From contig MQRK01227496.1 in assembly GCA_001938485.1 (NCBI GenBank), positions 1 to 64,000 of the forward strand: a stretch of 64,000 nucleotides of DNA. Direction: 5' to 3'. Of this stretch, positions 4,361 to 63,544 are shown in pieces; the stretch's first letter is position 1, and each line of letters opens with the position of its first letter. The notes below the pieces were generated by a model, which had not been told where the DNA came from, did not search any database, and worked only from the letters and a program-made list of their open reading frames with translations. The position numbers and the translations under genes are program-made. This DNA comes from Girardia tigrina (lineage: Eukaryota).

Positions 4361-5095
4361 ATATCAAAATATAATATTATTTTCAAGTTAGAGAAAAACA
4401 ACCGATTTACAAAAATGATAAGATTGTATTTGAATAAGATTGTATAATAATAAGATTGTATATAAATATTTCAACAAAGAATACAAGGATAATACAATAA
4501 TATTATGAGTGATAAAAGCCAATGATGGCAGCCTAGAAGCCAAATTCTTAATCCTCAAAATCAGGTTTGTACTTCTGTTATTTATTTCCTGATTAAATTT
4601 TTAATAATTTTTATGTTACTAAAATTCTGATTATTATACAAAGTTTTACAAACCTGATTTGAGTTGACTTTGAAAATTATTATTTATTTTAATGTTTTTA
4701 AGTCACCCCCTAAATGACACAATCATAAAGTCAAAATATATTTATCCAGAGGGATCACAATCCAGAATGATCAAAACCCAAAACAATCAATGTATTCTTC
4801 AATATCAGTTAAAAAGTTTAATGTCATTTAATTCATAAACCAAAATTACAGTAGATTAAAATTCGAAATGAAATTCATCTTATTTGTGGTAATTATTTTC
4901 TAACTTGGATCAACCTTAAAAATAAAAAAAAGATTAAAACCTGAAAGATCAAAATCTTAAACGTGTCCAATCACTCAAAACCTTGAGGGAAATATATAAA
5001 TACAACAGTGGCTAAACGTTAATTTATAATATCAACGTATGTTTCAGAAAAAATCATTTAATATGATAGATTAAAAATAATCAATTCGAACAAAC

Positions 5096-5407
5096 CATTT
5101 TTGTAGGACTGGTCATTGGTTGACCATGAATATGTGGTCAAAACTGCGTTCTTAAGGGTATTATCTTTGTTGGTAAAAGGACATATATTCATTAGGGAGG
5201 ATTGGTTGACCATAGGTGCATTGCCATATTCTTTCAATAAAAACGTTTCATCTTCTCTAATACTTTTAGAATCTTTATTTGTTTTATGGGGTAAAGATGA
5301 ATAAACACTAGCATCAAGAATCCGACCGGGTGGAGAATCAAAACTACTGTTGTCACTGGTCATTGAATGGGCTTGTTGAAGATTAGGGGATAAAAAACTT
5401 TTGATTT
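5096..5407 (-). CDS. DDR: DDR-like exon, cytoplasmic juxtamembrane region
   Basis: 312 bp, phase 1/1, acceptor tttttttaag, donor gtttgt. Ser/Tyr-rich open frame [38 protein letters not shown]...SYKN. Same strand and phase as the TM exon; linkage across a 21-kb intron is inferred. Confidence 0.68.
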
Positions 5408-43100: not shown

Positions 43101-46100
43101 TCAACTAAATAGAGAAGGGTTGGGAGTCATTAGAGAAACCAGTAAGAAAGAGAAAGCCCCTTCTTTCGACGCACATTGCTCTAAGTCATTATTTGCAGGA
43201 AGAGTGGACCTCAATCTAAATGGAATTAATGCATAATATTGAAAATACCATTTCTAAGATAGTGTCTGAGATTATAAATTATCATGAATATTCAACAAAA
43301 TACTGATCTGATGTGCTTTCATTATCGAATTCATGAAAATAACTTATTTCATTATAGAAAATCGTTATTTAATCCCAATACTATAATCGGATACTTATTC
43401 GAGGGCGGATTATTTATCGCTCATTCAAAATTTGATGGACATAAAACTTGAAACGTGGCATGGACCACAAAAATTCAAAAATAGGCCCTAGTTGTTCCTC
43501 ATGAAAAACTTTGCACATCATGAAAATTGTTAATAAATCTAGTTTGATGTATAAGTGTCTTTTAATTATAAATTAATTTGGACCAACCAGGTTCATCTAA
43601 TAGAAAAAATTAAATACATTCTATGTCAATATTCTATCAAAACTGTTAACTTTTTAACTGTTTACTTTCAACACACGGATGAAGAGAATACTCATAAAAC
43701 GATGTCGTGCGAACCTGAGAACCCCTTAATTTAACCCATACTCCTTCTTTCACGTATCTGTATTTATGCTACTTAGTTCCTCAGGTCATTTTTATATGAC
43801 CTTATTTTAAAAGTGATCTTAAAAAGTAATCGATTATTTACTTTCCGAAATATAATTAATGTGGTCACACAATATTTTGTCAAATGAAAGTATTATGAAA
43901 TACATAATAAATATAATACATATTTTACTTGATTCAAAGTTAATCTCCGAAACAAAAAGCCATTTCTCTTTGGCAATATACAAATGAATCTCCACATTAT
44001 TTCCAATTTTGTTCAGTAATTCCATTGTAAAAATTGCTCCCCCAACGCGATTTATTTGCACATTTATTAATGAAACATCTTTGCTGATTTCGAATTCCAA
44101 TTTCGAATCAGTTTTAAAAATAAGATTAATTTTAGAAAAAATATCAATTGTTTTATTTGGGAGAATGTGAGAAAATATTTCCAATTTTGTGAAATTTCTT
44201 GCTGAAAGATAAAATATAATTTTAAACTTTTTATGAAAAAAAATATATTTTTTTAATAAAATTTACCAATTATTTATTATTATTTAATGATTAGTTTTTT
44301 TAAAGATTGACTTTTACAAATATTTTCTTTGATGGTTTTTTTTTATTTATAATGATTTTTAGAGAGACATTTTTTTCAAAGATAAAATTTATTATTCTAT
44401 GTAATAGTTATTTATATTTTGAATATATGAACATGTTTAAATAGGTAAAAAAAACATGACACTAAATTTTATGTTATATTACAGTATTTTATATTATATT
44501 TTAACATTCAAATCTAAATCTTTCATACTCTTCTGTATTAAAGACTTTAGCAAAAAGTCATACTTTTATACATTTTATGTTTTGAAATGCATCTTGTATA
44601 ATCATAAACATCATTAACTAGTCAAATAATGGCAATTTCTTAAGTTATATATCAAAGAATTGAAGGCACCACATTATGTGATAGTCACATACTTAAATCA
44701 AAATAGTGGAATTTTATTTTTAAAAACATAGAGATGTCATTTAAAGAAACAATTTATATTATTAAAGGTTATTTTTTATGATGGAGTGTTTGCACGTATA
44801 TTTGTGTCTTGCTCTTGTACTTAGGTGGATATGAGCTATGTTATGCATATTCCAAAATAGTTGATTTTTATATTAATCGACCTCCTTGAAGACGATCTAA
44901 AGCGATTCAAGATGATATTATTGGTGATTTAGTGCATAAAAACCCAAGGATCACCTCGGCGAATATTGATGAAATATGGAATATAAAGCATCGACTGTTT
45001 TTGTCATTTTAAGAAACTTGAATTTACTTTAAAGCTTAATACATAAGTGCTACTATATAAAATAACTGAACAATATGTACCATGTCTCACCATTTATTTT
45101 TAGTCAAATATAACTGAAAATGATAAATTGTTTTGTTTTAAAAATTTGAATAATATCTAACGAAGAATCATGAAAAGATGAACTTGAAAGGGTCAAATTT
45201 AAGGTAGAAGCAAACAAGCTACCATCGTTAAAAATATTTTTGTTTAGTTGGACCGTGAATAAATAATTTCATTGTTTCATACATGTGACGAAAAAAAAGA
45301 GAAGACCACCTTGCTGAACTCATTGAAAAAATAAAAGCTAAAAATCAAGTTTATGAAAGATTACAATTTTAATGTCCTGCAGCACTCGCAGTATTTAGGG
45401 AACTATCTTACTGAGAGGAAACCAAAAAGGAAATTCATATTAAAATTTGAGTATTTTGTTTAGTGACCGAGAGAGAGAGGATCCTCGTGAATCTACTGTT
45501 GTAATAACACTCATAAATTCATCTGTCGCCAATGGATTATATTTAGGATTCGGACCCCTGTGGGAAAGCTTAAAATGTTCTGAGCATTATTATTTCCCAA
45601 ATATTATATAACTTTTAGGTTATATTTTAAATAGTATATTATTTTTCTTGAAGAAGAATAATAATATCAATGTATAAATTACTTTTTTCATAATAAAAAT
45701 GGATTGGTATATATTGATATGAGCTTTCTTTGGTAAAAATCCACCCTATGAAATAGGGTTCCTTCAAACCGTCCAGGTTACCCACCCAGGCTCTATTGTC
45801 AGTCAATAAACCGAGACCGTTTTGGAGGATAATTTCATTGCTTTTAAAAGTCTTTTCTCCGTCATAATAGCGATCATAGGTCGGTATCATTTCGGAGTTA
45901 GAGTATTCAAAATGTTCTCCTTCCAAAGTGGAATAAGTTTTTGGAGAATCTAAAATAATATTATGTAACAAAAATCATATATATTTATAAAAATCACTTT
46001 TCTTGAATAAAATGTAGAGTTATAATTTAATAAGAGAAATATTTAATTTCATTCTTGATTTAAATATCAAACCAAAAAGATTTAGCAGTCATATTTGTAT

Positions 46101-48114
46101 AATTTATGAAAGAGATAGGTAAAGTAAATCTATGAATACGGGATATCTTGTGATAGTGGAGGATAGGGAGTTGTAGCTAGGCGGTCAACAACGGAAATTA
46201 TAATTGGATGTTACATTAAAAATCTTATGTTAGGTACTAAAATATAACTCAGTTCAAGTCTAGTAACCATTCATTTCTTTTGCGTTAATTTTGTATTATA
46301 CTTATCATGAACACTAATATCATTTCCAATACTTTTGTTAACACCACAACTCGAATTGCCTCCAGGACAATACTCCACAATACGATCGTAGTTATAAATC
46401 GTTCTCTAACAAATTTAAATTACGATTCCTAAATAAAATGTTTTTAAATTATTTTCGAAAATATTTTAATTCATTTTAAATATTTTATTAATGATTAAAT
46501 AAATCTTTACGTTACAATACACATTAAAAAATACTTTAAATCACTTTCAAATAAATTTAATATATTTTGAATAAATTTGATTATATATTTATTGATTCAA
46601 ATATATTAATTTATTTTAAAGTTGTTATTTACATTTCAAATTGTTAGAATAATCCGACTGTTCAAAACATTCAAAATATCAATCTTCCATATGGGTGGAA
46701 GAAACACAATCCTAAAACAACATGTCAAACACAACATACAATAAACATTTTCCGAATACATTCCACACAATTCTCATTTGATGCTTTACATACCACGTTT
46801 CTTTCTTTGTTAAAGAGTCTCGCGACAAAGTTGTTACATTTCAGGTGTGATTCAGTATTGTTCCATGGAAAGAGACCAAAATATTGAAAAATATTTTTCC
46901 CTCCTGGAGTCATGATTTAAAGAATGCATAAAAACATCTTAACAAAATAAACAAAAGTATTAATAATATGATTGCATATATATGAATAGATATTTGTTAT
47001 AATTATGGTGACTATATGTCCATATTTTCCAGGACATATCCGGGTTTTTATGTTTGTCCAGAGTAGGGCTGGCAAACTCGGGATCCCCGCATTTCAGGAT
47101 TTTAGGAAAATTTGTTTCCATTGAGATAAAATATTATAAAAAATTGATGACTTTTTAAATTTGAACTTATTGGTAACAAAATCTACTACTAATCAGTAAT
47201 AATTTACAACTGCTTTATAACTGATTAAATTATGATTTTTTTTCAGAAAATTCAAAAATAAAATTACTCTACTAATCAGTTATAAAACTTTTTTTCGTTG
47301 GGATGACCACTTGTTTAGTGAAGAAATAAGTTTTATTGTTTCATCCAGGTCATTAAAAACTAACAGTGGACCCACTTACCAAACTAAACATCAAAGTTTA
47401 AATTAAAGATTAAAATTTTTTTCTTGCCGCACTCGCCGCTTTTCCGGACCTATAATACTGAGAAAAAACCGCAAACGAATTTCATATTGAAATTTAAGTT
47501 TTTTGTTTAGTGAATGAGAAAAAGCCTTGCTTATAATAATGTATGTCACATGTCGTACGTACTTCCCTCGAATCGAATACAAATCTTCTAAAAATATAAA
47601 ATTTTATTTCGTCCAAGTCAATAAAACAAAGTCTATTCTTTAAAATAATAATATAAATAATTTCCAATAACCTTTAATTTTTGAATATATAAAAATTTAG
47701 TATTTCAAATAATCTGTATCTTCAAAAATTTTGTATCCGGCTATTGAGTTTTTAACAACGAACATGGATTAACACACATAATTTACAAACTCTAGAATAA
47801 TCTGTCACCACATGATTATATTTACAATGCAATGCGTTTTGGTGGAGCTTAAAATTGAAAAGAGTTTTCTTTGGCTAGAATAAATGTAAATGAACTATTC
47901 ATTATAAATACCAAGTACTGAATACATCAGATGACTACCTAAGTTCGTACCTAATGTCCAAAGATAGCGTTGATGATATGCATGTTCGGATTTGAATTAA
48001 TAAAATTTGAATTGGAATTTTTAATCAAATTTCAGTTCATTAAATTTGTATTAAAAAATATATATATATAATAAAAGGAAAGAAAAAAAATAAATTAAAA
48101 TTATGTATACTTAT

Positions 48115-48159
<45 letters not shown>

Positions 48160-51100
48160 ACGTAAGAGTTTTTTGTTTCTAATTCGTTTGTCTAAGCGAA
48201 TCAGTTATTACAGAGTTTGATATCTAATAAAGATTACTAAGGATTATCGATTGCTTTATTATAGAAATATTAATTAACTGAAATTGAATGTCTAATTTAA
48301 AAGAACAGATAACTTTACCATGTGATTATATTTTTAATGTGGATTATTTTATGAAGACATTTGAAGATAATCATATAAAAATGTCCGAAGAAATCATTTT
48401 ACCTGCTGTTGCGTCTCTAATGAGAAATCCGTCAAATCCAGTCGTATTTTTCGATGTCAGTGTTGGTGGTCAGGATATTGGCAGAATACAGTTCGAATTA
48501 TTTGCCGATATTGTCCCGAAAACTACGGATAATATCCGTCGATTTTGTACGGGTGAATACCGTAAAGATAGAGTTCCTATTGGCGACGAGAACTTTGAGA
48601 TGAAGCATGATAGTGCCGGCAAATTGTCCATGAGATCGCATATCAAAGGAACTGACGAAATTTTAGCACCCACCTAAATTTGTGGAAACATTCATGGTCA
48701 ATGGGAAAGAGAAATGACCGTCAGAAGGCTAAGAAAATTAAAATCGGCAGAAAAAATATGCATGAAAAAAAGTTACAGCAGTCAATGAAGAACAATCCAC
48801 ATTAAATACAACATAAATCGAAAAAATAATTGTAGAGTGGATTGCGATGTGCCACATTCAGAGAGGATAGAATTGAATGAAGATTCGCCATACACTTATG
48901 AGCATTAAAACTTGACCGAGGTGTTGCAAACGTATTAATGGTATTCGTGGTGCAGAGCCCATTTACTTTAAATTTAAAAATCTTTGATTTTTATTTTGCT
49001 TATATTTCAATTATTGTTCACAAAATAGTAATTGAAAAAAGTTAAAAATTATTTTGTTGTCACCAAATATTTTGATTTTATTACAAAAATAATCGTCAAC
49101 GTATTTTCAGAATCGTCACAAATTATAATTAAAAAGTGGTCTATTTAAAAAAGTCATTTAAACAATCACTGACCACTTGCTCTAATTGGCCAGCCAATCA
49201 TAGCGAGTCATTTAATAATTCCTCTAATTCGGTCATTCAAGTCCCAAAACTATTGAAACATTTTGTCAATCTTCAAATCCATGGGTTACATAATAATGTT
49301 TTTTTTGCATCTGATAAATTTTAATAGTTTATGTTAAAAATTTTTTTCGGTATTCATTATCTTTAAAGAAAAATACCAAACGAAACGTTTTTCCCATGAT
49401 AATTAACGACCCTGTAAATATCCTCTAATGATAAAATGACATTTTTATAATGATTTTAACATATAAATAATTTTTGAAAAGCCTTTTAATATTTAAATAT
49501 TCTGATTTAAAAATTCAAGTAAATATAAATATGAAAGTGTAACAAATTTGTACTCAAATAATACTTTTTATAATTTCAAATAAATGGATATATCAGACAA
49601 TTATTAATATTTATTATCATTATTATATTATTACGAATGTTATTAAAATGAATTAAAATATTTATTAACCGTCAAAACTGCATCCAAACATAGCAAATTT
49701 AATACAAATCATAATAGCATTGTGTGGATCCACAGGGTATATCTTTATGGATGATGCGATTATGGCGGGGATAAAACTCGTCCGACTCTGGGTTCGGGCA
49801 TCTGTGTTTATTGGAATAATCTGAGAGTCACAACTTTCATTTAAATCTGTTAATTAGGAAAATATTTTTACTGTTTGATTTTCTGTAGTTCTATATTCGT
49901 AAACTCGACCATTTGACTCTCTTTGATAAGTTATTCTTATTGTCGGAACAAATTCAATATACTGAAACCAATAAACTGATAAAATAGAAATATAAGAAAA
50001 AAATGTTAAAAATTGTTTGTTGTGTCATCCTTTCAAAAACATTAAACATAAAGTTCTTTTATTATTTTCAATAAATTAATTTGAGATATTAAGTAATTCG
50101 ATAATTAAAGCATAAGGTAAAAATTTCTGCAAACATTTTATAAAAATTTACATAAAAATGTTTATAGAAAGTTTAAAAGTTACATTGTAAATGTTAAGAA
50201 TTTTTGTCGAAAAGCTTTTTAATATTCAGTAAAGCTTTTTTAAGAGTTTAATTGAATCAATTACAAGTTATATTGGAAAAACTTGTAAAACCATAAATAT
50301 AATAATAAGATATAAAATTTGAGGAAATTAAATTAAAAAGTTTATTTAAATTGTGTTATAAGTTAGAATCAGCCTCCCCCAAACTGTAGAATAACATCAT
50401 AAACTTCATTTGAGCACAGTGTATTGAATCACAGACTCTTTATTAGGTAGAAACTATAAAATAAACAATGCTCTCGCATGGCTTCAGACTTGGGAGTGCC
50501 AGGTTTCAGTGTACGGGTACAATTTTGCTTATAATTTAAGAATAACAATTCATGATCCCGAGATATTCAAAATAAATAGATGTAGAAACACTTTTATCGC
50601 ATTAGGTAAATGGACAGTTGAACATTCCTCTGTTTGCTTGTTTTCCCAGCCTGAATATTATTATTTTCCTTATGATCACTTCTTAGTGTTACCTAAAGTG
50701 ACTGGAATATGATATACTGTCTAATTAAAAGCATGTGTTCTTCTGTTTTCTGTGATATTTGAAGTTTTTATTATGTGATTGATCAACCTATGTCGCTGCA
50801 ACCATCAATTCATTTTGTCACTTTTGTGTTAGTTCCTAATGAGGCAGGAAGAGGATACAGCTCATATTTATCACTGAGACACTGGGCCCAAATTTATGTT
50901 AGTAATGCGTCGTTAAAGTTTCTTCCGTTCAGCTCATTATTTGTTATTAAATATTATGAGGAAGTCTTTTAGACAATAAATGTTACTACTACAAAACACA
51001 AGTATTATTTTTTTGTCTATAAACGACTTTTCGAGTGCTGGAAAGAAATGGACAACTCGCCGAAACTTTTAAATTACATTGTGTAACTTCCAAATAACTA

Positions 51101-54100
51101 CATTACAACAATAAATTTTATTTTGAACTTTGAAAACATTTCAAGTCAACGAGGTGGTCATATACTTGTCAAAGGTAGCTTATATGTTTAACTTTGACAA
51201 GAATTTTAATATAAGAAGAGATGGAGACGTAGAAAACGATGCTGCTTTGTTTACATTTTTTGGAAGGTTAGAACATTATTGACATTTTCATAAAAATGTT
51301 CACGAAATTCCGTGTAGGAATCATCAAAATCGTCATTATTCGAAATCAGTGTTAATTTAACCATTTAATGAGGAACGGTTTTCGATAGATTTCATCGGCT
51401 TCCGGACGACTTTCGGCAAAGGCGCTGTACCGACAAAATTGTATTGATGCGCGCTATCCAGATTGACCACGATCTTAAATGGATTCACTCTGGTTCTTCC
51501 GCAATTTCACATTGAAAAGCGTGACCGACAAACAAACAAACAAACCAACATACTTTTTAGGCAAATATTATATATATATATATAAGTACTTTTTGTAACA
51601 TTGGATGAGGTTTGTTTAGCTTTTTAATTTTCTCGAAACGAATTGATAATCCTATTATTATTAAAAATCCTAAAAACGAAATTTCGTTAATAAATTTACA
51701 GAAAGTTTAATATAAATTCACAAAAGTTATACGTAAATGTAAATTAATTGAAATAGCTTACCTATCTATAAATTATTATTTTATAAATCTTTTATTTAAT
51801 ATTTAGAAAACTCAAAATTTATTGTTTTTAAAGTTTTATTAAAATTAATAAAGCAGATAAGAAAGAATATTATATTTCATGAATAGAAATAAAATAATAT
51901 AAATCTGTTTTGTTATTTTTTAACAAGATTATTACAAAATAAATTATGAATAAAACCAGTTAATAAGCAACAAAGAAAACATTTAGTTATGAAATTTTGA
52001 CAGGAAATTTTCTTTTTTTTCATTTTGTACTATTTATTGTTAAAGTATTTGTATGCAGAAGTATCGTTAAGCGCCACTCTCATTAATTTTTGTTTTAGAT
52101 TTTGAGAACTTTTTCGAAACGAACTGCCAAAGATGTGGCTATTCATATTCCCAGCGGAAATAGTGCTTATATTTCTAGTATTGTGGTTATACCACCAGAA
52201 AATATCAATAAAAATAGCAATGATGATGACATGGATGATTAAGGTATTGTTGGGGATGTAACAGGTATCGAAGTTGTTAATATCAGGGCTGCGGAGTCGG
52301 AGTCGTGAAACTCAACTTCGAGCAAAATAATAACAAATATTATATATTGACCTAAAAAGGAGTCGGAGTAGGAGTCAGGCATTTTTGGTCCGACACCGCA
52401 GTCATGGTTAATATCGAAACAAAGAATAAAGAAGAAATATCTGAATCTGTTTCAAAACCAAAATTAAATGCAATTAGTCATTATCGAAGAGTGTATTATA
52501 AAATAGAAGACTTTAATTCAACCAGTACAGACATGTATGATTAAAACTTTTCTTCATTTGGATGAAGTTGACTTTTTTGAACTTTTCTTTTACAAAAATT
52601 ACTTCGAGATCATATTCTCCGAGAAACTAGAACTTTTGCTCAACAAAAGAATAATCACGCCTTTTCATTGACTAATGAACAATTAAAAGGATTCATTGAT
52701 TATATTATTAACTGGGTACAACAGAAGACCATAGCAAAAGTTATATATTTCTGATGCTGAGGATTTACGCGTTCCTTTGGTGACAAATACAATGAACCGA
52801 CCACAGTTCTTGCAAGAAAAGGAATATTTTCACTTCAATAATAACACAAAGCTCTCAAAATAAAGCAGTTATCGTTTTTTGGAATTTTTGTGCTGCAGAC
52901 ATTGGCGGAACAGTTAGCCACTGGAATAAGGGACAAGGCCATGTTGATGTTTCCATACCAGAATTAATTCAAAACTACAACTTAGGCATGGGTGGTGTGG
53001 ATTTGAAATAGACAATGCGGGGAACAGTTACAAAATATCCATCCCTTCTAAAAAATGGTATTGGCTACTTGTAATGAATGCTCTTCAAATGCGTCACAAA
53101 TGCTTTGCACTTACACAATATGGTACATGGTAATATGAAATCTCTACTTGGTTTTACAAGAACTATAGCTATGGAAGACATGAAACACTGTAAAAATCGA
53201 TCAATGAAGAGAGTGGTACAGTCACCAAGCAATTTTAATGCAGTGAGGTGAGAAATCCCTTTATGCATTACATTATAACCAAGTTATATGTGAATTTGAC
53301 AATTTTTTTAAGATATGATGGCGTTGGTCATTTTATGGCCAGAAGAGAAAAGCAAAGTCGATGTCAATGCGAGAACTGCAGCGGTAAACGCCGATCCTAC
53401 AATAAAAATACACTGTAACATTATTTCAAAACTGTTTTAAATATTATCATGTTAATTGAGGGAAAAATATATTTTTCTATTTTTGCCCATTTTCTGCATG
53501 TAAAAGACAACTGATCATATTTGGGATCAGCAAGTTTGACCCACATATGGTAAAGGAATTCTATGAACTCTTGGGTTTCCAATGATTGATAACCTTAATG
53601 AATGATAACCCTAATAAAAGACCTCGAGACATACAACAAAATAAAACTCTGAAACAAAAAATAGCCTTTTTAAACTAACTTTATAAAAAAGTAACATTGT
53701 AACTAACAAATAAAATTGCTGATGATTGCAAAAGAATTTCCAAACATGTGTTAGGGTTTCGAAAAAATTTAAATATGAATAAAAAAAATCAAAAAAAATA
53801 CATATGAACACTTTTGATAAAATTTTATGTAAAAAAATTTAAAATAATTCTTTTGATAAAATTATTAATTTCAAACAAAATAATATTTAGTTTAGCAAAA
53901 TTTGGAATCAAAATTAAAAATATTTTAGTCTTTGTTTTATTTGATCAATTTTCAAGGTTAGAAAAAACTAATATATAAACAACAACGAATTCAGTCACAC
54001 ACACCAATAATTTCCTGCAACAAATTTTTAAGAAGATTCCGTGTAGAGTAAATTTATTTAAATTCTTTATTTTTATTTCTTTACTTGAAGTTGAAGTCGA

Positions 54101-57100
54101 ACTAAGTATCCTGTATAGGAGAATAAAATTCATTTGACTTTAAGGGTTTAACGGTTATCGTTCGTTTAGAAGATTTATAGTTTGAAAATTAATAAACTTT
54201 GATCTGATAAACTCTCATCGAATATCCGTTTGTGAATTGAACAATATAAGCTGTGTGCTATTTTGTGTCATTGGAAAATAAAGTTTTTAAAAGAATTTGT
54301 GTTCATTCATTTATATATTTATGTTGGAAGTCCTTTCTGATTAATTGAAGTCAGATTAAAGATTTCAGATTAAAGATTAAAGATTTCAGATTAAAGATTA
54401 CAGATTAAAGATTAAAGATTAAAAAATAAAGATTTGTGTTTGAAACGTAAATATTTAAATTAAAGATAATTTTAATACCCAACACATGTACAATAATCGA
54501 ATTCTTTAAAAGCTTTAACAAAATTATTTTTCAATATATAATAAAAGGAAAATAGTTTTAATTAATCAAAAATGCATTCGAAGTAAACTAAAAATAGTAA
54601 AAGTAAAGGAAAAAGCATATAAAATAAAAACAAAACAAAGGTTTTATTTTCACTTTTCCTTCTCATGTTTTAATGAAAGAGGATTATATTTTCAATTCTT
54701 AAATCTTGTTTTACATAATTTTTGATTTTTTTGGATATATTTTTTTACAAAAATTTATTTACGTTTTTTTACATTCTTTTTTAAAAAAATAAAATTGCAT
54801 ATTTTGACGCAAAATAAACAATTTATTAATGAAGATATTTTGTTTTAACTTTCGAAAGAAAATATTAATGAGAAAAGAACAAAAGAATAAAAGTAATTCT
54901 CATTTTAAAGAGTTAAAAATAAATGTCTACTCTAGTTATTTAAAGTTTTTCATTAATTAATTCTTTGTTTTAAATGAAAAGAAGTAAATTAATCCTTAAA
55001 ATATCTTGAGGGATATCTCAATGTTTCTTACAATAAAGTTTTGTACAATTAAGTTTTGTACGAGGAAAACTGAGTTTTGTAACAAAATATTTGCTGAACA
55101 AAACAGTCTTTCAGTAAAATACAATTTTGTTTCAAATTTGAACCATAAGAAAATTAATTTTATACAGGTTTTTAATTAAATATTTGTTACATTTAAGTTT
55201 TAGACAATAATGATGTATTAGTTATTCAATACAAACTTTATTATAAGTTAATTAATTAATTAATTAATTGGAATTTACAAAAAAAATATATCACAAATAG
55301 ATTCAATTGTAGCGTTTATTATGACCCCCTTGGGCCCTTAAATAAGATTGTGTAAGGGTATATGTCAATAAAATAATAATTATTATTTATTATAATTTAT
55401 ACTTTTTTACTGATTTCATACTGAATAACTTCGATATTAAATCCATACATATTTTTATAAATGCATATAATTGGTAGTAGAGAGTAAAATATGACATCAA
55501 TAAGATCAAAAAACGAACGAAGGATGTATCTGTCTGTACATAAACCCGAGTTATGATATTGGAAAGGAGAACTAGTGATGGATAAACAGTTAATCTGGAA
55601 TTCTCATTTCGACTTTGGGTGGAAGTGTGAACAGAACTTTGAGAAGATCAATAAGAAGATCGTGGACACCAAAATAAAACAAGCAAAATAACGTTGAGTG
55701 ATTTTCAAAAAGCACTGCTTTAACAATCGATTAGCATATTGATGCTTATGGCAGCATATTATCATTTTCAAAATGGTATTTCTATCACAAAACATTGAAA
55801 TAGGTAGTAACAAATACTCACCTAAAAGTTGAAAGGGTAAGCTTTTTCGTAGGTACCCATTTAACAAGAAGATTTAATAATATCACTTTTTTGATAGAAT
55901 GCCCTTAAAGTGGTATTAAGAACACCAACATGGGTTTTCAAACTTTTATTTTCATTACAATCAGAATTGTCTTTTGGACAACTCTCAGCAAAACTCTCGT
56001 CATTCGACATCGTTCTAAATTGATAANNNNNNNNNNNNNNNNNNNNNNNNNNNNNNNNNNNNNNNNNNNNNNNNNNNNNNNNNNNNNNNNNNNNNNNNNN
56101 NNNNNNNNNNNNNNNNNNNNNNNNNNNNNNNNNNNNNNNNNNNNNNNNNNNNNNNNNNNNNNNNNTTTTATGTAAAGAAAGAACATTTAATTAATTCAAA
56201 ACTTAGTTAAAACTATTTATTTTATTTAAATTTTAATATGAAAATTTGAAAAGATTTAATATTTTTAATGTTTTTAAATATCTTTTAAAATGTAAATTAT
56301 ACTCGAATAATTATTTATCGTGAACATCCAAAATATCAATTTTCCATCTGGGTGGGAGAAACACATTTCTAAATACTAAACTCAACATACAAAATTCAAC
56401 AAACCAATTTCAACATACCAAATTTAAATATTCCTCACAAGTGGGGAGTTAAGAAAGCATAAACACAGTTCAATCCTGCGGTTCTTTAAGCATCTAGATT
56501 GTAAAGTTCCTGCTTTTGCAAGATGTGTATTTGATTCGTCATAAGATCTAGTTGACTTACTAGGTGAAATGTGACCCACAGCAAAACCATTAACTTTTAG
56601 CAGTTGTGAGGAATATTTTGAATGTTTGATGTTTTGTGTTTGAATGTGTATGTTGATTGGGAATTGTGTCTCTCCTACCCAGATGGATGATTAATATTTT
56701 AATTCTTATTATCTAAAAATATGTAATGTTTAAATTTATTTTTAATTTAAAATAATTTTAAAATTTTAAATAAGTTAATTAATTTTTACAATTTTTAATA
56801 AATAAATCAAATTAATATTTTTTAAATAATTCATTATCATTTTAATTATTATCCAATAAGTTTTGAGTAAATATTTTAATAAAATATTTATTTCTCCATT
56901 TGCTAAAAAAATTATAAGAATTAATTCAATAATCAATTTAGTTTAGAATGCAATTGTACGAAAGCTTTCACGAAAATTGTCTTCAGGACAATCCAAATTG
57001 TAGTTTAAATAAAAATATGAAAACTCAAATTGGTGTTCTTAATAGCAGTATAAAACCTTATCTGATGTCTGCTTGAGGACCATGCATGGGATTACTTTTC

Positions 57101-60100
57101 AGCTTCAAAAAATTTAGATAGGATGTGTGAGAACTTGACCTGAAGTCCACACCCGTAGTCTAATAAGCCTGATTACTGTATCGTACCTCAAATGGTACTG
57201 GTCCCGAGACATTCATTGATATCGGTAAGTAATAAAAAATGTATACTTTATTTATAAGTGCAAGAAATCTCTAAACTGTATCATCTGCGTCATGATCCTT
57301 TTATTCACATAATTGTCACTTATGATGAAGCGTAGATATACTTTAACAATCTAGTCAATGTTGGCGATCAGATCACAAAACGGGATCAATTCTAAAGGAA
57401 GATTTTTAGTGTGTTTTGTTGAATTTCAAAAGTTTAAATCACATCAAGCTACTTTTAAATGATTGAATTATTGATGTTTACCATTATTGAGCTCAGCTTG
57501 ATCAAATTTATCAGTGCCTTGTGCGTGCTTGTGATACCTCATTTTAGCAAACGGACTGTGTTCGATGTTTTCACATGCGTGTACTTCATTCTCTTTATTT
57601 CTTTTGGATGTCCTTGCTTGCATTTGTTATTTATCTTTTTTTGTGGGTGTCTTCACGTTTGTTGTTGTCTTGCACATGTGTCGATGTATTAACCACAGTG
57701 ATTATATTTTTTTATTTTATATGAAGTAGATTATTTGTGTTGTGTTTATATATATATATATTTTTATATCGTTTTATTTTGTGTTTATCGGGAAAGAGAC
57801 AAAATCGAAAAACCCCCGAAAGAAAAATTTGAAGCAGATAAAATATCATAATCGCAAGAAAATTAATTTATGAACGAAAGAAAAAATAATCAAGGAAATG
57901 AATACAATCATTGAAAGACAGAAAGAAAGATTGAAAGAAGAGACAAATTATTATTTTATTAAAATTAATTATGCAATTTGAATTCGAATTACAATTCGAA
58001 TTGAAATTGATTGATAATTAATATTTTCATGACGATTAATAATTATGAATTCATAATTACGAATTTACTTACCAATTTATTCGACAATTTATTTGACAAT
58101 TTACTTGACAATTTCCGGCGTATTTACTTATTATTAATCAAAAACTAATTATTATTAATCCAAAGGATATCTGCCCAATATCTAGTTGATCGGTTACTCC
58201 TAACAAATTTGCTGACGATATTTATTTGTATAAATTGACTGATAAAGTTTATTTGAGAACGATTGTTTTGGTCAGAGATTAATTTTTCTGCTATGAATTA
58301 TATAGTTTTCGAGTCTGTTGTTCTTATTTTCCTATTAATAGTTAGAGTATGTTAAGTACCGATTAAATTAATCAAACCGCCAGGAAATTGAATAGATTTG
58401 ATTAGTTTAGTCTAGCCTCTATCTTAATCAAATTTTTTCTATAATTTAAGTGAGTTAAAAATATCGAAATCGGTTCCCAAACCAGAACTATACGAAAAGG
58501 AACCTTTCTCTTTTCTGATCAGTGGTAGCCGAATTTGATATTTTACAGTGCTCTTCTGACACAATAACACTTAAAACCGAATACAAACCGCCAAACCCAA
58601 GGAGGAATAACGCTTGACGCCATTGAACTATTTTAACATCCAGCTTATATTTCGTACCCTGTCCGTTCATTAGTACCAAGAAAAAAGGGAAACAAAAAGA
58701 TTATGGTTTATATGAGAAAAGAATTCTAGAATACCCCTAATGGAGTTCTTCTTTTTAAAATTTTTTATTTTCGAATTTTGACGTCCACAAAATTTTCTTT
58801 TGACAGAAAAAAAATTTAAAAACCGATTTTAATTTTTACTCATATTTTTGTTAGAATTATTTCTGTCTAAGATCTCTTTTATATTTTCCATCGCATTTTA
58901 TTAATAATAATATAATCAAAAAATTATCTATCCATTTAACGTTTTATTATTCATAGGTTGATTAATAATTTATAAGAACATAAAACAAATAAAAAAAACA
59001 ATGTCCCTAAAAACAATTGCCATTTTCATTAATAAATGAATCTATGGAAAATTAATAAGCTCAAAATATAAAGGAAAAAAAACCTTAGAAAAAAATATTA
59101 AAATAAATATTAAAATTATCGACATAGGAGAAATATAATTATTTTTTTAATAAACAAAAAAAATATATCCAAAAACGTAAGTGAAAAAATAGAAAAAACG
59201 AAAAATTGATTTTTTGCAGGTAAATAAAAATAATATTGATAAAAATAATAATATTTTAAACAAGTCTTTCGACATTTGAAAGACAATAATTGTGGCAATA
59301 AAATTTAGCAAATATCGTTTCTACAGATCATTATCATCCTCTTCCTCCTCCTGCTCATCCTCACTCATCCTCATCACTCATCAACCATTCATTAGTCCAA
59401 TGAATTATTTAATTCTCACCCAACCAACACACGATATCTAATTGAAATGGTATTATATGCTTTAATCATCTGAAAGGAGCGGTAATTAATCAACCTCTAT
59501 TCCCAGGATGGTTCCCGCACGAAGCAGCTTCACGAGCGAGGAAGAAACACTCGTTTTCAATTGCATTTAATACAATCAATGCTTTCCTGACCAGGAGGAA
59601 TTTAATCAATAAGTTTTCCTCTACAATTCCATACTTAATCAATCAATTAATAATCAATAAAAATTAATTAACTAATTAATTAATCAGAATTTTATCACAA
59701 TGACCAATTGTCGAATTAAAGGATATCAATATTCGTATTTTGATTCCATTTAAATATGATTTAATTATATTTTTTGATTTTTATTTTTCAAAAAAATAAT
59801 CGATATTTAAATATGGAAATTATTTATTTATTTATTTATTTCAGAAATATAAAAATAAAGGAATTTATAAATATTTATTTATTAAATTAATTTTTTTAAT
59901 AATTATTTTAATTTTTTTTTATAAAGAAAGAAAAAAAAATATTTTTTATAATAATTTTTGTTTCTGTTTACAAAAAAAATTTCTGCCAAAAATAAATTAT
60001 TTAATCAATAAATTCTGTGTTTTTTTTGTTTTCTTTTGCAATTTTTATTTCTCGTTTTAATTTATTTCTAATCAATAAAAGTTAATTAATTTACTAATTA

Positions 60101-63100
60101 AGAAGTATTTTTTTAATAAACAATTGTTTAATAACAGTTTTCAGTTAATAGGTTTTTGTTTTTTCGTTAATTATAAATTGAAACGCTATTAATTATTATT
60201 AATTATAAGGAAAAAAGAAAGATCTTTTATATAATGAGGAAAAAGAATTTTTTTCATAATATTGAAAGAAATATGTTTTTCGCATTTTGTTTTATTTTTT
60301 TCTTTAAGGGTTATATTCTTTATCGGACCGACATGCGATTAAATATTTGGAATATTTAATCAATTTAATATAATTATTTAATTGATTTATAATATATTTG
60401 TCTAAAGTGTTAGTTTATTTGTTTTTTTTCGTACACACTGTGAGGAATATTTTAAATTGTTTAAATGTGTAAATGTATTGATGCTGTATATTGATTTAAG
60501 TATGTTGAATTTAGAATGGTGATTCTCCCACCCAGATGAAAATTGGTATTTTTTATTAAGTTTAAAGGATTGACTATTCGAATATAATTAAAATAATCAT
60601 TTTATAAGTTCATATTTTTAATTTAACAATTAAAATTAAGTTTAATATTTTTTGGTAAAATTTAAATTAAATGTATTTTTAATAATTTGATGACATTTTT
60701 ATTATTTTGGGATTTATTGAGAAATGAAAAAATTTATTATTTTTAATTAATATTAATTAATATATTTTAAAAAATGACTTAGAAAAATTGTTTGAATAAT
60801 CATAATTAAAAATAAAAATGAGAAAATCAATTAGAATGATGACAAATGATGAAAGACTTTCTAGAGTCATAATGTTTCTAGATGTGATTGTAATAAAAGT
60901 TCAAATGCGACTTGTCTAAATGTTCTTAATATGGCGACACACGACCACGTGACAGCAATTATCAAGGGACCGGAGACATTCGATGGGTCAGAAGTAAAAT
61001 TAGAAGAATTCCTAATAAGCTTTGAGAGATATTCAAAGATTTTTGGATTTAAGGAAGAAAGAAAAGCGATATTAGTTACAGTATTCATGACTTCCGAGGC
61101 GATAAACAAATATGAGAAAACACAAGGAGACAACTGGGAAACAAGAATAAGAAGTGCATTCTCTAAAGATAGAAATATTTTTGAAATAATAAAGGAGCAT
61201 GTAGAGATTAGAATCGGGGATAAAAATCCATCAGAAGTATTTAAAAAGATTGATGAACTAGTGGAAAAATGAGTTGAGAAAAATGTAGGAAAAAAGGAAT
61301 TTTCAGATCTAGCGTACGCCAACGCCATCGAAGATAGAGAAGTAAGAAGAGAAATAACTCTGAGAAATGCTCCAAAAGCAGAAGATATAAAAAATATCCA
61401 GGAGAAAATTTACGAATTTGAATTGAAAGACAGGAATATAAGAGTAGACGCGTACACGACAAAGTAAAATAAAGAATGGAAGAAAGTAGAATATAGAACA
61501 AGAAGACTGAAACCAAGATACGAAGAGAGAAAGTACGAAGAACCAAGAAGAAATTTTAAAGCGAGAAGGATCATATGTCGAGCCTACCATGAAGAAGAAC
61601 ATGTGAGACGGGAATACCAAATGTTAAATGCAACCATTGTAACAAGAGAGGGCATGTAAGAACACAATGTTATGAGAATCCAAACAGATTTACAGAACGC
61701 GAACAATCTGGAAGAGAAGATACAAGGAATAGAAGAAATGAACGAAAAGAATACACAAACACACAATACAGAGGTCGGATAGGATATACGAATAGAAGAG
61801 ACCAAGTAACAGAATTAGAATACTCCGATGACGAGTGGGAAAGAATGTCGGAAAGATCGAATAATAAAAGAGGAAGTCTAACAAGAAGAGTAAATATTAC
61901 AAACAAGAAAATTTCAGAGACGAACCGCGAAACGAGGAGGCACGGTCACAGGGAGAAGTGATCAGTGCACTTCACTAAGAAACGAATGTATGCGTATGTT
62001 TGACTGTGAGAATGATTGTTTGTATGATGACGTATGCTGTGTAGGGGATGCTGTTGAAAATATTCATCAAGAATTATGTATATTAGATGGTAAAAACGAA
62101 ATACACAATGATAAAAAAAGAGTTCCTTAAGACGTTCAAAAAAACAAAGGATTTAGAATTTTACTCTCAAAATTATCAGATTTACATCTGAGAGAAAATT
62201 TACAATATCTACAACGATACGTATATGTTAATAATTCATGAAGCTCATAATTCCAATATAATTCATAAAAATGCTTAAATTGCTAGGTCATGTGTGAATT
62301 GAAAAAAACTTTAAATGCTATGAACTGAAAATTCTTTTGGCCAGATACGACAACAGATATAAAAAATCACGTTACTTAACCTGAAGCCTTTCGAGAATTA
62401 CAGACGAAAACACTCGCAAATAAAGGTCATCTATAAATATTTTTTGTAAATCAATCATTTGAAATGTTTGAAAAAGAAAAAAAATTATGGTCCTTTTCAT
62501 TGTACTAAAGATGGACATTTTTTTAGGCATCATTGTCTACTTTTCAAAATATCTGTCTCTAATTCATATTAAGAAAATATATTTGAATACGATTAACACA
62601 TTGAATACTGAGTACGAGATATCTCGTAATTTAACGTTATATGCCTGCCGCGCGGCAGTAAACTTTTTTGTCCCACGCGTTTAGACGTTCGGTGCATCAA
62701 CAGCAGTCAATGTGTTAAGAAAATTAGTCCTTACAGGACCAACAAATATTGGAATGTGGGAAACCAGAAAAGATTAACTCAAATATAGTTAATTTTTCGA
62801 TAAAAATTCAGAATTTATTTTGTTTCAATAACAATAGTAAAATGTTTTTGTTACGAATAAATATTTTGTAAAAACTTCACTCTAATTTTAATGAAGTATT
62901 TAACAATTATGTATGTATGACGTTATTAAAATAGATTGATATAAATGGTCATTTAAATTTTATTTTACCTCTTTCTAAATTGTTTATGTTCAAACCATAA
63001 ATTTTAAAATATTTTTTGATGCTAATTCAAGAACAATTAACTGAATATTAATTATTGAATATTAATTCATTTGAATTATTTGATTTTATAATTTCATATT

Positions 63101-63383
63101 ATTAACCATTTTCAATTTAAATGGTTAAAATTATCAATTTATTAAAAAATAATTATTATTATGAATAATTGCTTAGTAACCAAAATTTAATTAAATTATA
63201 TATTTTTTTCAATTTGGACTTACATTGCCTTCTCCTCTTCCTTTTGTGTAAATTCCGTTTATTATTTTTATGGATTTGAAATCCACTTGAATCCATTCTT
63301 TGATATCTGTGCCGACTCTTTTGTTTGGGCACCAGGCGTTACCATTATCCGGTTGGGAATTGGATCGGAAGATGTAGAGGAGT
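5096..63383 (-). CDS. DDR: Discoidin domain receptor (DDR)-like single-pass membrane protein gene, partial, 8 reconstructed exons; 5' end outside the window, 3' end unresolved
   Basis: Exons 63383-63224, 49961-49872, 49820-49670, 45949-45683, 44201-43929, 41438-41304, 26552-26322 and 5407-5096 all have AG/GT boundaries, with junction phases 0,0,1,1,1,1,1 that match. The translation follows DDR order: AWCP...TKGR...EF...[12 protein letters not shown]...GLGLLTD...FIGW...[15 protein letters not shown], stalk, TM, cytoplasmic tail. Confidence 0.9.
9883..10398 (-). mobile_element. Tigger/pogo transposase 5' fragment (psq-HTH + CENP-B HTH)
   Basis: [10 protein letters not shown]...KEKA...[14 protein letters not shown]...GEAA...QIF, truncated before the DDE domain. 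Confidence 0.85.
10750..11000 (-). repeat. Dispersed repeat with palindromic ctcactctgattg..ccaatgagagtgag core, copy 1
   Basis: Core at 10868-10902; the reverse complement aligns by eye with 15470-15700 and the core recurs at 49175-49208. Confidence 0.6.
12054..13537 (+). mobile_element. Full-length mariner, cecropia-subfamily-like, inactive
   Basis: Perfect 30-bp TIR ttaggttggtcgaaaaataatggcggtttt, [32 protein letters not shown](V). Frameshift near 12905 and third catalytic D replaced by V. Confidence 0.95.
13575..13680. repeat. (AAT)n microsatellite
   Basis: Direct reading. Confidence 0.95.
14390..15293 (-). mobile_element. Tigger/pogo deletion derivative
   Basis: TA-cagtctcccctcgttaaaccgcc terminus. 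Minus-strand C-terminal remnant ...[17 protein letters not shown]...[11 protein letters not shown]. Other end approximate. Confidence 0.55.
15470..15700 (+). repeat. Palindromic-core dispersed repeat, copy 2
   Basis: gctcacttttattagtccgccaatcagagcaagttattt followed by taatcgctcgatagctcg..gacactcaatgg, homologous to the 10.8-kb copy. Confidence 0.6.
16812..17023. mobile_element. piggyBac-type MITE, 212 bp
   Basis: TTAA|ccctgcagtgctaac ... gttagccctggaggg|TTAA. Confidence 0.85.
18582..19025 (+). mobile_element. 5S rRNA-derived SINE (SINE3 type)
   Basis: 120-nt 5S-like head (gatctcgtccgatctc, A-box agtcaagcaacc, gttagtactt, C-box-like tgggtgacc), ~320-nt body, A-tail and 12-bp TSD aattcaatttta (18570-18581 / 19026-19037). 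Confidence 0.9.
19830..19975 (+). mobile_element. Tigger/pogo CENP-B-domain remnant
   Basis: [30 protein letters not shown] resembles 'FKASNGWLERWK.R..I.FR.I.GE'. Confidence 0.6.
19980..21455. mobile_element. Long terminal fragment of a Maverick/Polinton-like element
   Basis: Ends ...cccccgggggggttgg...catttttcccttact, the same terminus as the 25.7-kb element. Rich in ggttaccatgg-type palindromes, with 21-bp tandem units at 20095-20157. Left boundary approximate. Confidence 0.5.
22437..23694 (-). mobile_element. Full-length mariner, mellifera-subfamily-like, inactive
   Basis: ~30-bp TIR ttggattgttcggaaagtcatttcg with [48 protein letters not shown]. Stops and frameshifts present. Confidence 0.93.
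24040..24763 (+). mobile_element. Highly degenerate mariner remnant
   Basis: [14 protein letters not shown]...LIDS...TRKI resembles mariner 'SLKDAPRSGRPVEV..IKALI...TTREIA'. Confidence 0.55.
25186..25734. mobile_element. Non-autonomous TIR element, Maverick/Polinton-like miniature (Academ is the alternative)
   Basis: ~36-bp TIR agtaggggaaaaatgcgggttctcacccaccccccc. AG...CT termini flanked by the 6-bp duplication atgctt. Internal 21-bp tandem array. Confidence 0.65.
25360..25642. repeat. 21-bp minisatellite (gaccgttgctatggtgatcgY)n, partly in a gap
   Basis: At least 6 visible units. Confidence 0.85.
26322..26552 (-). CDS. DDR: DDR-like exon, transmembrane helix and basic stop-transfer
   Basis: 231 bp, phase 1/1, ttttcag...gttagt. 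[24 protein letters not shown] followed by [10 protein letters not shown]. Confidence 0.85.
26753..29057 (+). mobile_element. Degenerate Chapaev3 (CMC) DNA transposon
   Basis: [26 protein letters not shown]...[34 protein letters not shown] motifs. Right end ...ttgttggacagtg|TAA; left TAA|tccaaca has lost the terminal cactg. Confidence 0.88.
29890..30415 (-). mobile_element. 5' fragment of an RLE-clade (R2/NeSL-type) non-LTR retrotransposon, N-terminal C2H2 finger
   Basis: Low-complexity N-terminus, then [26 protein letters not shown]; frameshifted afterwards. Clade assignment inferred. Confidence 0.45.
31017..31310 (+). repeat. Dispersed, possibly LTR-type repeat; second copy at 56440-57170
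   Basis: gggagttaag..agcata.acacag.tcaatcct...tagattgtaaagttc...cagcaaaaccat...tctgatgtctg shared by both copies. Confidence 0.7.
32880..33240 (-). mobile_element. Penelope-like RT C-terminal remnant
   Basis: [30 protein letters not shown]...ETK...RK resembles PLE 'LN..H.NI.FT.E.E....FLD....T..YRK'. Confidence 0.8.
33520..34400 (+). mobile_element. Penelope-like element 3' part: RT thumb, GIY-YIG endonuclease, pLTR
   Basis: [28 protein letters not shown] and [15 protein letters not shown], followed by a hammerhead-like core at 34333-34363. Confidence 0.88.
34325..34370 (+). ncRNA. Degenerate Penelope-type hammerhead ribozyme core
   Basis: CTGAAGA-t-gacgg(tagat)ccgtc-GAAA-tata directly after the GIY-YIG ORF; stem I is poorly paired. 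Confidence 0.55.
34659..35404 (-). mobile_element. hAT (Buster/Charlie-type) deletion derivative
   Basis: caggggaggccag ... tttggacatgtctg ends, gagccgca subterminal motifs, 8-bp TSD ttctagct/tactagct. Minus-strand remnant [17 protein letters not shown]. Confidence 0.75.
35195..35294. mobile_element. 100-bp mariner-type MITE nested in the hAT element
   Basis: TA|ttaggtgtacaactaattaatttcgt ... acgaaattaattagttgtacacccaa|TA (26-bp TIR, 1 mismatch). Confidence 0.88.
36867..38527. mobile_element. Non-autonomous element with ~100-bp TIRs (CACTA-like end), interrupted by a Tc1/mariner
   Basis: 36867-36964 is the inverted copy of ~38429-38527; right end ...ttttagtg. Confidence 0.7.
36965..38089 (-). 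mobile_element. Tc1/mariner element (CAGGGTG TIR), interior mostly assembly gap
   Basis: TA|cagggtgcggcagctatttgagaaca ... tgttctcaaatagctgctgcaccctg|TA. Possible ORF start MAEATLTN on the minus strand. Confidence 0.85.
40211..40651. mobile_element. hAT non-autonomous element, 441 bp
   Basis: TIR cagaagcgtcgctagg / cctagcgacgtcactg, perfect 8-bp TSD aataaaag, ggtgacac subterminal motifs. Confidence 0.9.
41304..41438 (-). CDS. DDR: DDR-like exon, extracellular stalk
   Basis: 135 bp, phase 1/1, tttag...gtaatt. Open frame [48 protein letters not shown]-richer island in the expected position; no conserved motif. Confidence 0.7.
41550..42650 (-). mobile_element. 5'-truncated NeSL/Utopia-type non-LTR retrotransposon (RLE domain + 3' UTR)
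   Basis: Stop-free LLDIKTPYD...[12 protein letters not shown]...[14 protein letters not shown]...[19 protein letters not shown]...* (stop at 41777). The 3' UTR recurs at 63790-64000. Confidence 0.88.
43929..44201 (-). CDS. DDR: DDR-like exon, DS-like domain part 2
   Basis: 273 bp, phase 1/1, acceptor tttatctttcag. Begins (T)[11 protein letters not shown] (DDR2 'IRNFTTMKVH') and ends [12 protein letters not shown] (DDR 'WLLFSEISF'). Confidence 0.9.
45683..45949 (-). CDS. DDR: DDR-like exon, DS-like domain part 1
   Basis: 267 bp, phase 1/1. DSPKTYS...DRYYDG...NGLGLLTD...YFIGW...IHFYYEK resembles 'SY..P.G...DSTYDG...GLGQL.DG...YVGW...EFEFD'. Confidence 0.9.
46303..46769 (-). mobile_element. 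Gypsy solo LTR, older copy
   Basis: Homologous to the 55.9, 56.6 and 60.4-kb LTRs (atgggtggaagaaacac motif, tgtgtggaat start). Flanks atact/attct match 4/5. Confidence 0.7.
48381..48632 (+). pseudogene. PPIH: Cyclophilin H (PPIH) fragment, intronless, in-frame internal deletion, 3'-truncated
   Basis: [53 protein letters not shown]|[16 protein letters not shown]. The GGQ and CTGE.RKD.VPIG motifs are PPIH-typical; the YKG..FHR...GGDF segment is missing. Confidence 0.9.
48657..48704 (+). pseudogene. PPP-family Ser/Thr phosphatase motif fragment
   Basis: [15 protein letters not shown] resembles PP1 'ELEAPLKICGDIHGQY', in the same frame as the PPIH fragment. Confidence 0.65.
49130..49240 (+). 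repeat. Palindromic-core dispersed repeat, copy 3
   Basis: acttgctctaattggccagccaatcatagcgagtcattt. Confidence 0.5.
49670..49820 (-). CDS. DDR: DDR-like exon, DS domain C-terminus
   Basis: Follows a 51-bp intron; 151 bp. [50 protein letters not shown] resembles 'PPMVARLVRFYP...VCLRVELYGC'. Confidence 0.9.
49872..49961 (-). CDS. DDR: DDR-like exon, DS domain middle
   Basis: 90 bp, phase 0/0, tttcag...gtaaaa. [30 protein letters not shown] resembles DDR 'KEFSRSYRLRYSRDG..W..W'. Not in the ORF track. Confidence 0.88.
51125..51250 (+). mobile_element. FLYWCH-like (MULE) transposase remnant
   Basis: [12 protein letters not shown] / YMFNFDK...RWR, frameshifted. Confidence 0.4.
51280..51586 (-). 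mobile_element. Helitron/Helentron-type non-autonomous element end with (GTTT)n
   Basis: gacaaacaaacaaacaaaccaacatacttt...tattatatatatatatataag layout, typical of DINE/HINE-like ends. Confidence 0.4.
52060..53600 (+). mobile_element. Degenerate piggyBac transposase (PGBD3-like)
   Basis: [17 protein letters not shown]...[15 protein letters not shown]...[35 protein letters not shown]-terminal DGVGHF...RCQCENC. Confidence 0.85.
52284..52406. mobile_element. 123-bp hAT MITE nested in piggyBac
   Basis: cagggctgcggagtcgg ... ccgacaccgcagtcatg, perfect 8-bp TSD gttaatat, ggagtc repeats. Confidence 0.88.
54352..54434. repeat. 7-bp minisatellite (agattaa/agatttc)n
   Basis: About 11 units, direct reading. 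Confidence 0.85.
55914..56439 (-). mobile_element. Gypsy solo LTR
   Basis: tgtgaggaat...ggtgttcttaata on the minus strand; 5-bp TSD agtgg (55909-55913 / 56440-56444). Confidence 0.9.
56605..57044 (+). mobile_element. Gypsy solo LTR
   Basis: tgtgaggaat...ggtgttcttaata; 5-bp TSD gcagt (56600-56604 / 57045-57049). Confidence 0.92.
60439..62470 (+). mobile_element. Truncated Gypsy LTR retrotransposon: 5' LTR (60439-60931), PBS, broken gag with two zinc knuckles, integrase remnant
   Basis: LTR of the same family, then tggcgac. Gag PETFDG...FL..FERY; knuckles [14 protein letters not shown] and [15 protein letters not shown]; integrase Zn-finger remnant GHV..EKT...FFWP at ~62290-62370. Protease/RT/RNaseH and 3' LTR not seen. 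Confidence 0.88.
62597..62714. mobile_element. 118-bp piggyBac-type MITE
   Basis: TTAA|cacattgaatactg ... cagcagtcaatgtg|TTAA. Confidence 0.75.
63224..63383 (-). CDS. DDR: DDR-like exon, discoidin (DS) domain N-terminal part
   Basis: Acceptor ttcag, donor gtaagt. [54 protein letters not shown] matches DDR 'GAWCP...EYLQVDL...VGTQGR'. Confidence 0.92.
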
Positions 63384-63544
63384 CTGAATAATTTCAATTA
63401 ATCGGTGAAATATATTCAACATGAAAGAAATTTAATTTTGTAAATTATCCGTACAAATATTTTAAAAAAAAGAATAAAATGCAAGGTTTTCATTATCAAA
63501 TTATTATTTTTTATGACGACTAAACGATATATTTTATTTTATAA

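Follow-up and report, generated by a model that had tools for sequence, protein, structure and literature searches.

Host coding fragments within the long terminal repeat of a BEL/Pao retrotransposon family in Girardia tigrina

A 64,000-nucleotide stretch of DNA from Girardia tigrina (positions 1 to 64,000 of contig MQRK01227496.1, assembly GCA_001938485.1; hereafter, the window), belonging to an AT-rich animal genome assembly of 1.43 Gb, contains an intronless mosaic of host gene fragments, raising the question of how pieces of other genes came to lie joined at this locus. The original prediction placed the mosaic inside a DDR intron, as cargo of a gene-capturing element. Pfam matches agreed with this location: a minus-strand DDR gene has its F5/8 exon at 63212-63397 and DS-like exons at 45642-45974 and 43837-44262, and the element described below lies antisense to it, between the F5/8 and DS-like exons, where small intervening exons are possible.

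45975..63211, minus strand: DDR host interval, from the F5/8 exon to the DS-like exons (Pfam F5_F8_type_C, DDR1-2_DS-like)

Elsewhere in the window we noted remnants of two mariner-type transposases, together with a Tc5/pogo DNA-binding remnant (12355-13457, plus strand; 22513-23557 and 9886-10452, both minus strand). A minus-strand frame at 41780-42157 resembles, by eye, the end of a non-LTR element that encodes a restriction-like endonuclease, and has no Pfam match.

The frame at 48288-48677 matched Pfam Pro_isomerase (E=4e-6), its named protein relatives were mostly cyclophilin H (PPIH), and its layout was as first described, with a 31-aa leader, PPIH residues up to VPIG, a jump to DENF, an end at LSM and eight further codons. 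The leader and these eight linker codons, previously left without assignment, correspond to codons 1-31 and 36-43 of a PP1-like gene, and the GDxHG stretch also derives from this host phosphatase. The mosaic of host fragments is real, with two parents only, the PPIH piece being nested in a PP1-like capture, and it is, as predicted, the cargo of a gene-capturing mobile element. Both parent genes are present in the assembly: the PP1-like parent (locus L228, G000:C192807) is intronless, with a full Metallophos match at the locus, and PPIH occurs at L230 (G000:C254982) and L067 (G000:C231200). The PP1-like parent reads GQW and is missed by a GQ[YF] pattern; a longer cargo copy led us to it.

48266..48380, plus strand: PP1-like 5'UTR and codons 1-31, ATG at 48288; 88% identity over 117 bp to parent L228
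48378..48584, plus strand: PPIH codons 1-68, comprising exons 1 and 2 with the first part of exon 3; parent exons in L230 and L067
48585..48632, plus strand: PPIH codons 107-122, 3' of a 114-nt in-frame deletion; 47/48 nt identical to the parent
48633..48656, plus strand: PP1-like codons 36-43, the 8-codon linker; the parent segment starts directly after CAG
48657..48704, plus strand: PP1-like codons 63-78, which include GDxHG; 42/48 nt identical to the parent
48705..48755, plus strand: 3' terminal module of the long terminal repeat (LTR), in phase with the cargo frame; 165 exact matches to its last 18 nt, against one for a control, a count inflated by haplotigs

As proposed, the PPIH piece comes from a spliced RNA, lacking two introns whose sites correspond to 48473/4 and 48538/9. 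The suggestion that LSM marks an exon end also holds in this genome's own PPIH gene, since the piece stops exactly on the exon-4 donor, where the parent reads on GTAATT. The FHR segment falls within the 114-nt in-frame deletion, and a cryptic-splice origin of the VPIG/DENF deletion was discarded, as the bases do not fit. A second in-frame deletion, of 57 nt, separates PP1-like codons 36-43 from codons 63-78. PPIH replaced PP1-like codons 32-35 and was therefore captured second; as read from the sequence, the order is nested, with the PP1-like capture first, two in-frame deletions, and PPIH inserted within. The 5' join between PP1-like and PPIH sequence has a 5-nt overlap (48378-48382) and the 3' join a one-base overlap. 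The 5' join would fit a template switch at its overlap. The 3' join coincides with the exon donor and lies directly after CAG in the PP1-like sequence, and splicing therefore fits it better than a template switch, so that this join may have arisen by splicing. The PPIH intron that follows exon 4 is interrupted by a 3.6-kb N stretch; its readable sequence showed no LTR remnant.

The stop at 48675-48677 is private to the window copy (1/45 copies scored), and in subfamily B, to which 30 of the 50 copies examined belong, another 45 nt are deleted in frame. A related LTR type (L210-L229, e.g. L222 and L223) starts with TGTTTGAG, ends in GATCA and carries a longer PP1-like fragment, with a polypurine tract (PPT) in one copy and a primer-binding site (PBS) in another; for this type the pattern matches 337 sites within two mismatches, including the PP1-like parent and tubulin-type LTRs. 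Separately, about a dozen loci (L147-L163) share flanks around a second intronless PP1-like fragment, possibly the cargo of another element.

To what kind of element does this mosaic belong? Copies elsewhere in the genome aligned with the window across 47983-48755 and none extended further, and we regard this segment as almost certainly a solo LTR left by a BEL/Pao retrotransposon.

47983..48755, plus strand: solo LTR, BEL/Pao, PPIH-cargo type, subfamily A; the extent is common to copies, and the same LTR type precedes a PBS and gag-pol elsewhere
47976..47982, plus strand: direct repeat ATATGCA, left copy, 7 bp (target duplication)
48756..48762, plus strand: direct repeat ATATGCA, right copy, 7 bp
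47983..48265, plus strand: LTR front common to cargo types (putative U3 and R), AT-rich, with a TA microsatellite

PPIH-type copies start with TGTT and end in AACA; the window LTR has the TGTT start, its final bases deviate from the AACA of most copies, its target duplication is 7 bp as compared with the family norm of 5 bp, and no PBS lies 3' of 48755. The boundaries thus differ from those first suggested: the supposed Helitron start near 48150 is an internal TA microsatellite, and the weak end near 49425 is no boundary; the unit ends at 48755. Likewise, of the roughly 250 bp of further coding-like sequence, 48705-48755 belongs to the unit, whereas 48756-49100 matches no copy; this right flank gave only two short matches elsewhere in the genome, and none to Pfam among the stretches tried. 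The flanks at 47900-47982 and 48756-48965 read like one coding-like stretch, interrupted and of low copy number.

We counted at least 150 PPIH-bearing copies, since 150 of 401 candidates were scored and all 150 matched, with haplotigs inflating the counts. Because the junctions are repeated at 150 or more sites and both parents were found, neither a chance match nor an assembly chimera accounts for them. Exact 5-bp target-site duplications (TSDs) flanked 10 of 18 two-ended copies, compared with 1 of 306 control pairs; allowing one mismatch, the figures were 15/18 and 17/306. Target-site duplications of BEL/Pao elements are 5 bp long.

Some copies run into TGGTAGCAGAG, a primer-site motif that we take to match initiator tRNA-Met, and then into a shared interior. 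We located 69 such PBS-leader sites, seven of them with PPIH-type LTRs; none of these seven belonged to the window's subfamily A, and no two-LTR element of PPIH type was recovered. A tRNA scan of three loci was negative. The interior encodes, in order, a ubiquitin-like domain (Ubl), DUF1759 Gag, Peptidase_A17, Integrase_H2C2, rve and DUF5641, which is the BEL/Pao order; the matches to RVT_1 (E=3e-4) and rve (E=6e-4) fall below Pfam cut-offs, and the protease is recognized by motif only. The accessible text of PMC3118150 gives this domain set for BEL/Pao. Locus L099, with PP1-tubulin cargo, spans 7.7 kb and has paired LTRs (98.4% and 95.2% identity over two blocks), a TSD, a PBS and a PPT, the last also present in L098. 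By its domain order and termini, the carrier family is a BEL/Pao LTR retrotransposon.

Several observations concern the interiors. After the PBS, L080, L084 and L098 encode a Ubl ending in LRLRGG, in frame before the BEL/Pao Gag (Pfam E ~1e-16), whereas the version in a second sub-lineage is distinct and closer to ubiquitin. Loci L129 and L176 show an LTR with a PPT before it and a PBS after it, consistent with tandem elements sharing one LTR. The interior of L084 is broken at 3845-6028 by long open frames of another element, with a weak RNase_T match (E=0.006).

The LTR front contains a hairpin-like box (~48183-48200), an initiator-like TCAGTT (48201-48206) and AATAAA (48226-48231); among 43 LTRs scored, AATAAA or ATTAAA occurred in 40 and the initiator-like motif in 30. 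Because the cargo follows the poly(A) signal and precedes the PBS, we infer that the rear of the LTR carrying it is U5.

Comparison of the 69 PBS-linked LTRs revealed a common front and a rear whose cargo varies. The cargo types were distributed as follows (PBS sites):

BTB-like: 20/69
PP1 plus tubulin: 10/69
Type D: 7/69
PP1 plus PPIH: 6/69 by motif, 7 by clustering
Histone H2B: 6/69
Type F: 3/69
Type E: 2/69
Tudor: 2/69
PP1 tail with another leader, not recognized: 2/69, one locus
Striatin: 1/69
Unassigned: 10/69

Pfam matches in the cargo were to tubulin, histone, striatin, Tudor and cyclophilin; the BTB-like label is based on a Pfam match of E=0.035. Searches of PDB with types D, E and BTB-like and with the L073 leader gave no confident match, the best for type E being a zinc-finger protein (E about 1e-3), and the weak PP1 matches of L073 came from its tail. 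The LTR front type agreed with the interior type at 37 of 38 scorable sites, and BTB-like, type D and H2B cargo occurred on both sub-lineages, so that cassettes appear to move between them. Additionally, 3' modules are common to several cargo types. H2B and Tudor cargo in L200, L172 and L127 have a common leader with a weak match (E=0.03) to DUF543, presumably the Mic10 family; the Tudor cargo appears to be inserted into an H2B remnant, and both Tudor copies are broken, with a stop in common. Locus L201 has almost no cargo, with about 70 nt from the conserved box to the PBS, and could be either a cargo-free ancestor or a deletion.

Is the cargo read? At 62 of the 69 sites the longest stop-free run 5' of the PBS lay in one and the same phase, and runs of at least 60 codons numbered 41, 0 and 4, phase by phase. 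When 144 stretches taken from 15 of 26 clusters were scanned against Pfam in six frames, seven matches resulted, all sense and six in the main phase, the sole off-phase match being Tudor. All five PPIH-lineage junctions (5/5) were in frame. The stop-free runs thus place the cargo lineages in one shared phase, although copy-based counts overstate independence because the copies are related. Past the PBS, 15 of 26 copies were in phase at the LRLGG motif some 60-115 codons on, despite length changes (p=0.009, the copies not being independent). Beyond the poly-G run, 7/26 copies agreed in phase with Ubl-Gag, no more than expected by chance, and so give no evidence of a fusion to Gag.

We examined substitutions in 50 copies. 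Changes private to single copies (191 nonsynonymous, 55 synonymous and 11 stops) fit the neutral expectation, whereas those shared by at least three copies (48 nonsynonymous and 24 synonymous) lean silent (p=0.064 as compared with private changes), some of the shared silent changes perhaps being host-side. Two shared changes were scored as stops, one of them in a two-change codon that reads Tyr. All 35 indels were private, with no shared frameshift, and in 23 of 45 scored copies the frame that begins at the PPIH ATG stays open until the LTR ends. We read this pattern as suggesting selection on the open frame more than on the peptide: the amino acids of the cargo appear largely free to drift, constraint on them being weak. 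That sister lineages bear different host pieces mostly in a single frame likely means that the element translates its stolen host cargo.

RNA contigs lend the element weak support; the runs consist of contigs only, mostly from one sample labelled 'RNA?'. Among those of X1 and X2 we recognized spliced PPIH, the PP1-like gene and the subfamily-B joins; a 5,241-nt contig begins in the PP1-like tail and appears to continue into the PBS letters. Run X3 gave low-depth coverage of leader, Ubl and Gag, and run X6 gave nothing.

Overall, we consider it probable that the cargo was acquired from host mRNAs during reverse transcription and that its frame has likely been preserved. Starting from the PBS, reverse transcriptase would copy U5 first and could sometimes jump onto a co-packaged host or chimeric RNA; the switch product, lying in U5, would be duplicated into both LTRs, and recombination would leave solo LTRs, the window copy included. 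A start codon brought in with the cargo would precede all others on the element's RNA and be read first, which is likely why cargo stays in frame and in-frame captures alone would persist; captures that break the frame would likely disappear, an open frame being required across the primer site. The copy in the window is itself dead and unremarkable, and the finding lies in the family-level pattern. More tentatively, the LTR might act as a swappable cargo bay, its U5 frame starting a polyprotein from which host deubiquitinases free Gag at ubiquitin-like ends, such ends being represented here by a degraded LRLGGG and by a complete Ubl that terminates in LRLRGG. If so, the element would sample, shuffle and express host domains at little cost, scattering histone fold, Tudor, striatin, PP1, cyclophilin and tubulin as hundreds of solo LTRs.

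The prediction had favored a Helitron or a Pack-type DNA transposon as the carrier, a reading that the concatenated host fragments and the internal microsatellite would suit. It is now extremely improbable: 5-bp TSDs, TG..CA ends, PBS, PPT and lost introns speak against it, as do the paired LTRs around BEL/Pao pol, those of the PP1-tubulin type (L099) included, and the carrier is a BEL/Pao LTR instead. Helitrons have 5' TC and 3' CTRR ends and produce no TSD, in place of the TGTT/AACA ends and 5-bp TSDs found here. We also rejected a Pack-TIR transposon, which would have terminal inverted repeats and intron-bearing genomic cargo, there being only 5-6 complementary terminal bases and two cargo introns absent, and a Ginger-like TIR element, in view of the lack of real TIRs and the presence of PBS and PPT. 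A neutral by-product, with the rear of the LTR a hot spot for stray switches and the common frame due to descent of few modules, would account for private changes at the neutral expectation, for the many closed frames (just 23/45 open from the PPIH ATG) and for 3' modules common to cargo types. However, five of five independent PPIH-lineage joins would be in frame by chance once in 243 cases, unrelated cargos share the same phase and no frameshift is shared among 50 copies, so that this reading is already strained and we consider it quite improbable.

Two further alternatives concern what the frame is for. By carrying host sequence in its most abundant part, the element could turn small-RNA silencing onto host genes and thereby gain anti-silencing camouflage; the accessible text of PMC13534243 reports silencing directed at host genes for Drosophila telomeric elements, the PPIH cargo, 88-97% identical to its parent, lies within the targeting range given there, and a Tudor fragment is among the cargo. 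Nevertheless, the identified cargo is mostly housekeeping and the conserved frame is left unexplained, making camouflage unlikely as the main account, although it can coexist with in-frame capture from host mRNA. Alternatively, the LTR frame might encode a separate short protein ending at the poly-G run, where the ubiquitin-like motif LRLGGG lies, with Ubl-Gag starting at its own Met or by slippage. The most frequent length of the poly-G run puts the frame out of phase with Gag, a Met some 27 codons beyond it is conserved, and in L098 a single frame encodes both Ubl and DUF1759; yet the stretch from run to Met lacks stops, by eye, in several copies of both sub-lineages, and slippage affects long G tracts in old copies as well as in assemblies. 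We hold this possible, if doubtful; it is a variant of the capture account preferred here and leaves the LTR assignment unaffected.

Elements that retain gag-pol thus carry host coding fragments in the LTR, where each capture is doubled on replication and solo-LTR formation spreads it, offering a high-throughput route of exon shuffling in an animal. Such LTRs will inflate family counts of PP1, cyclophilin and tubulin and absorb RNA reads. P0001, a JGI metagenome protein, corresponds to the cargo frame of a subfamily-B LTR that had been annotated as a gene, which shows a route of such LTRs into protein databases. Should the cargo frame be translated, one could test in what way a retroelement tolerates stolen peptides or makes use of them.

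LTR elements are usually said to capture genes only rarely, the capture replacing the interior and leaving a non-autonomous element. Host sequences or open reading frames within LTRs have precedents in Cassandra, with 5S rRNA in its LTRs, and in MMTV sag and HIV nef, which lie in U3, while ubiquitin insertions in pestiviruses create host-protease cleavage sites and may resemble the present family in the use of ubiquitin as a processing signal. Unlike these fixed single features, the LTR frame described here is a changing mosaic 3' of the poly(A) signal.

The accessible text of Tan et al. (2016, PMC5131818) describes LTR-mediated retroposition in animals, in which mRNA replaces part of the internal ORFs. 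Their cases, which include a mosquito BEL example, resemble ours in joining incomplete, intron-free host mRNAs to an LTR element, in having several parents per copy and perhaps in the short overlaps at joins, and the present family likewise has a spliced mRNA fragment with LTR-element sequence on both sides. As far as that text goes, ours differs in that the cargo is inside the LTR, 5' of the PBS and in both LTRs of L099, with the interior retained and the internal ORFs not replaced, in at least 150 copies, variable among lineages and in one frame. In plants, multi-gene, exon-only captures by Bs1 and TRIM elements, and foreign sequence brought into the LTR of BARE-2 by template switching, are reported in the accessible parts of PMC4717578 and PMC13317346; there, unlike here, TRIM cargo is described as internal, and BARE-2 took the sequence of another retrotransposon and not host coding sequence. 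Drosophila telomeric retroelements are similar in their repeated capture of host fragments (140-235 bp) by autonomous elements of high copy number, but are non-LTR elements that took mostly piRNA-pathway genes and act via small RNAs, the accessible text of PMC13534243 describing no conserved cargo frame. Burro giant Gypsy elements, in the available portion of PMC6431247, also have host-like domains in an LTR-element polyprotein, including a Ubi2/SUMO motif; they differ in belonging to the Gypsy clade and in the internal position of these domains, and no variable LTR cargo is described there. Our searches of the open-access literature turned up no description of variable host coding fragments inside LTRs. 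LTR-mediated gene capture is known; what appears new in this family, as far as these searches reach, is host coding cargo within the LTR itself.
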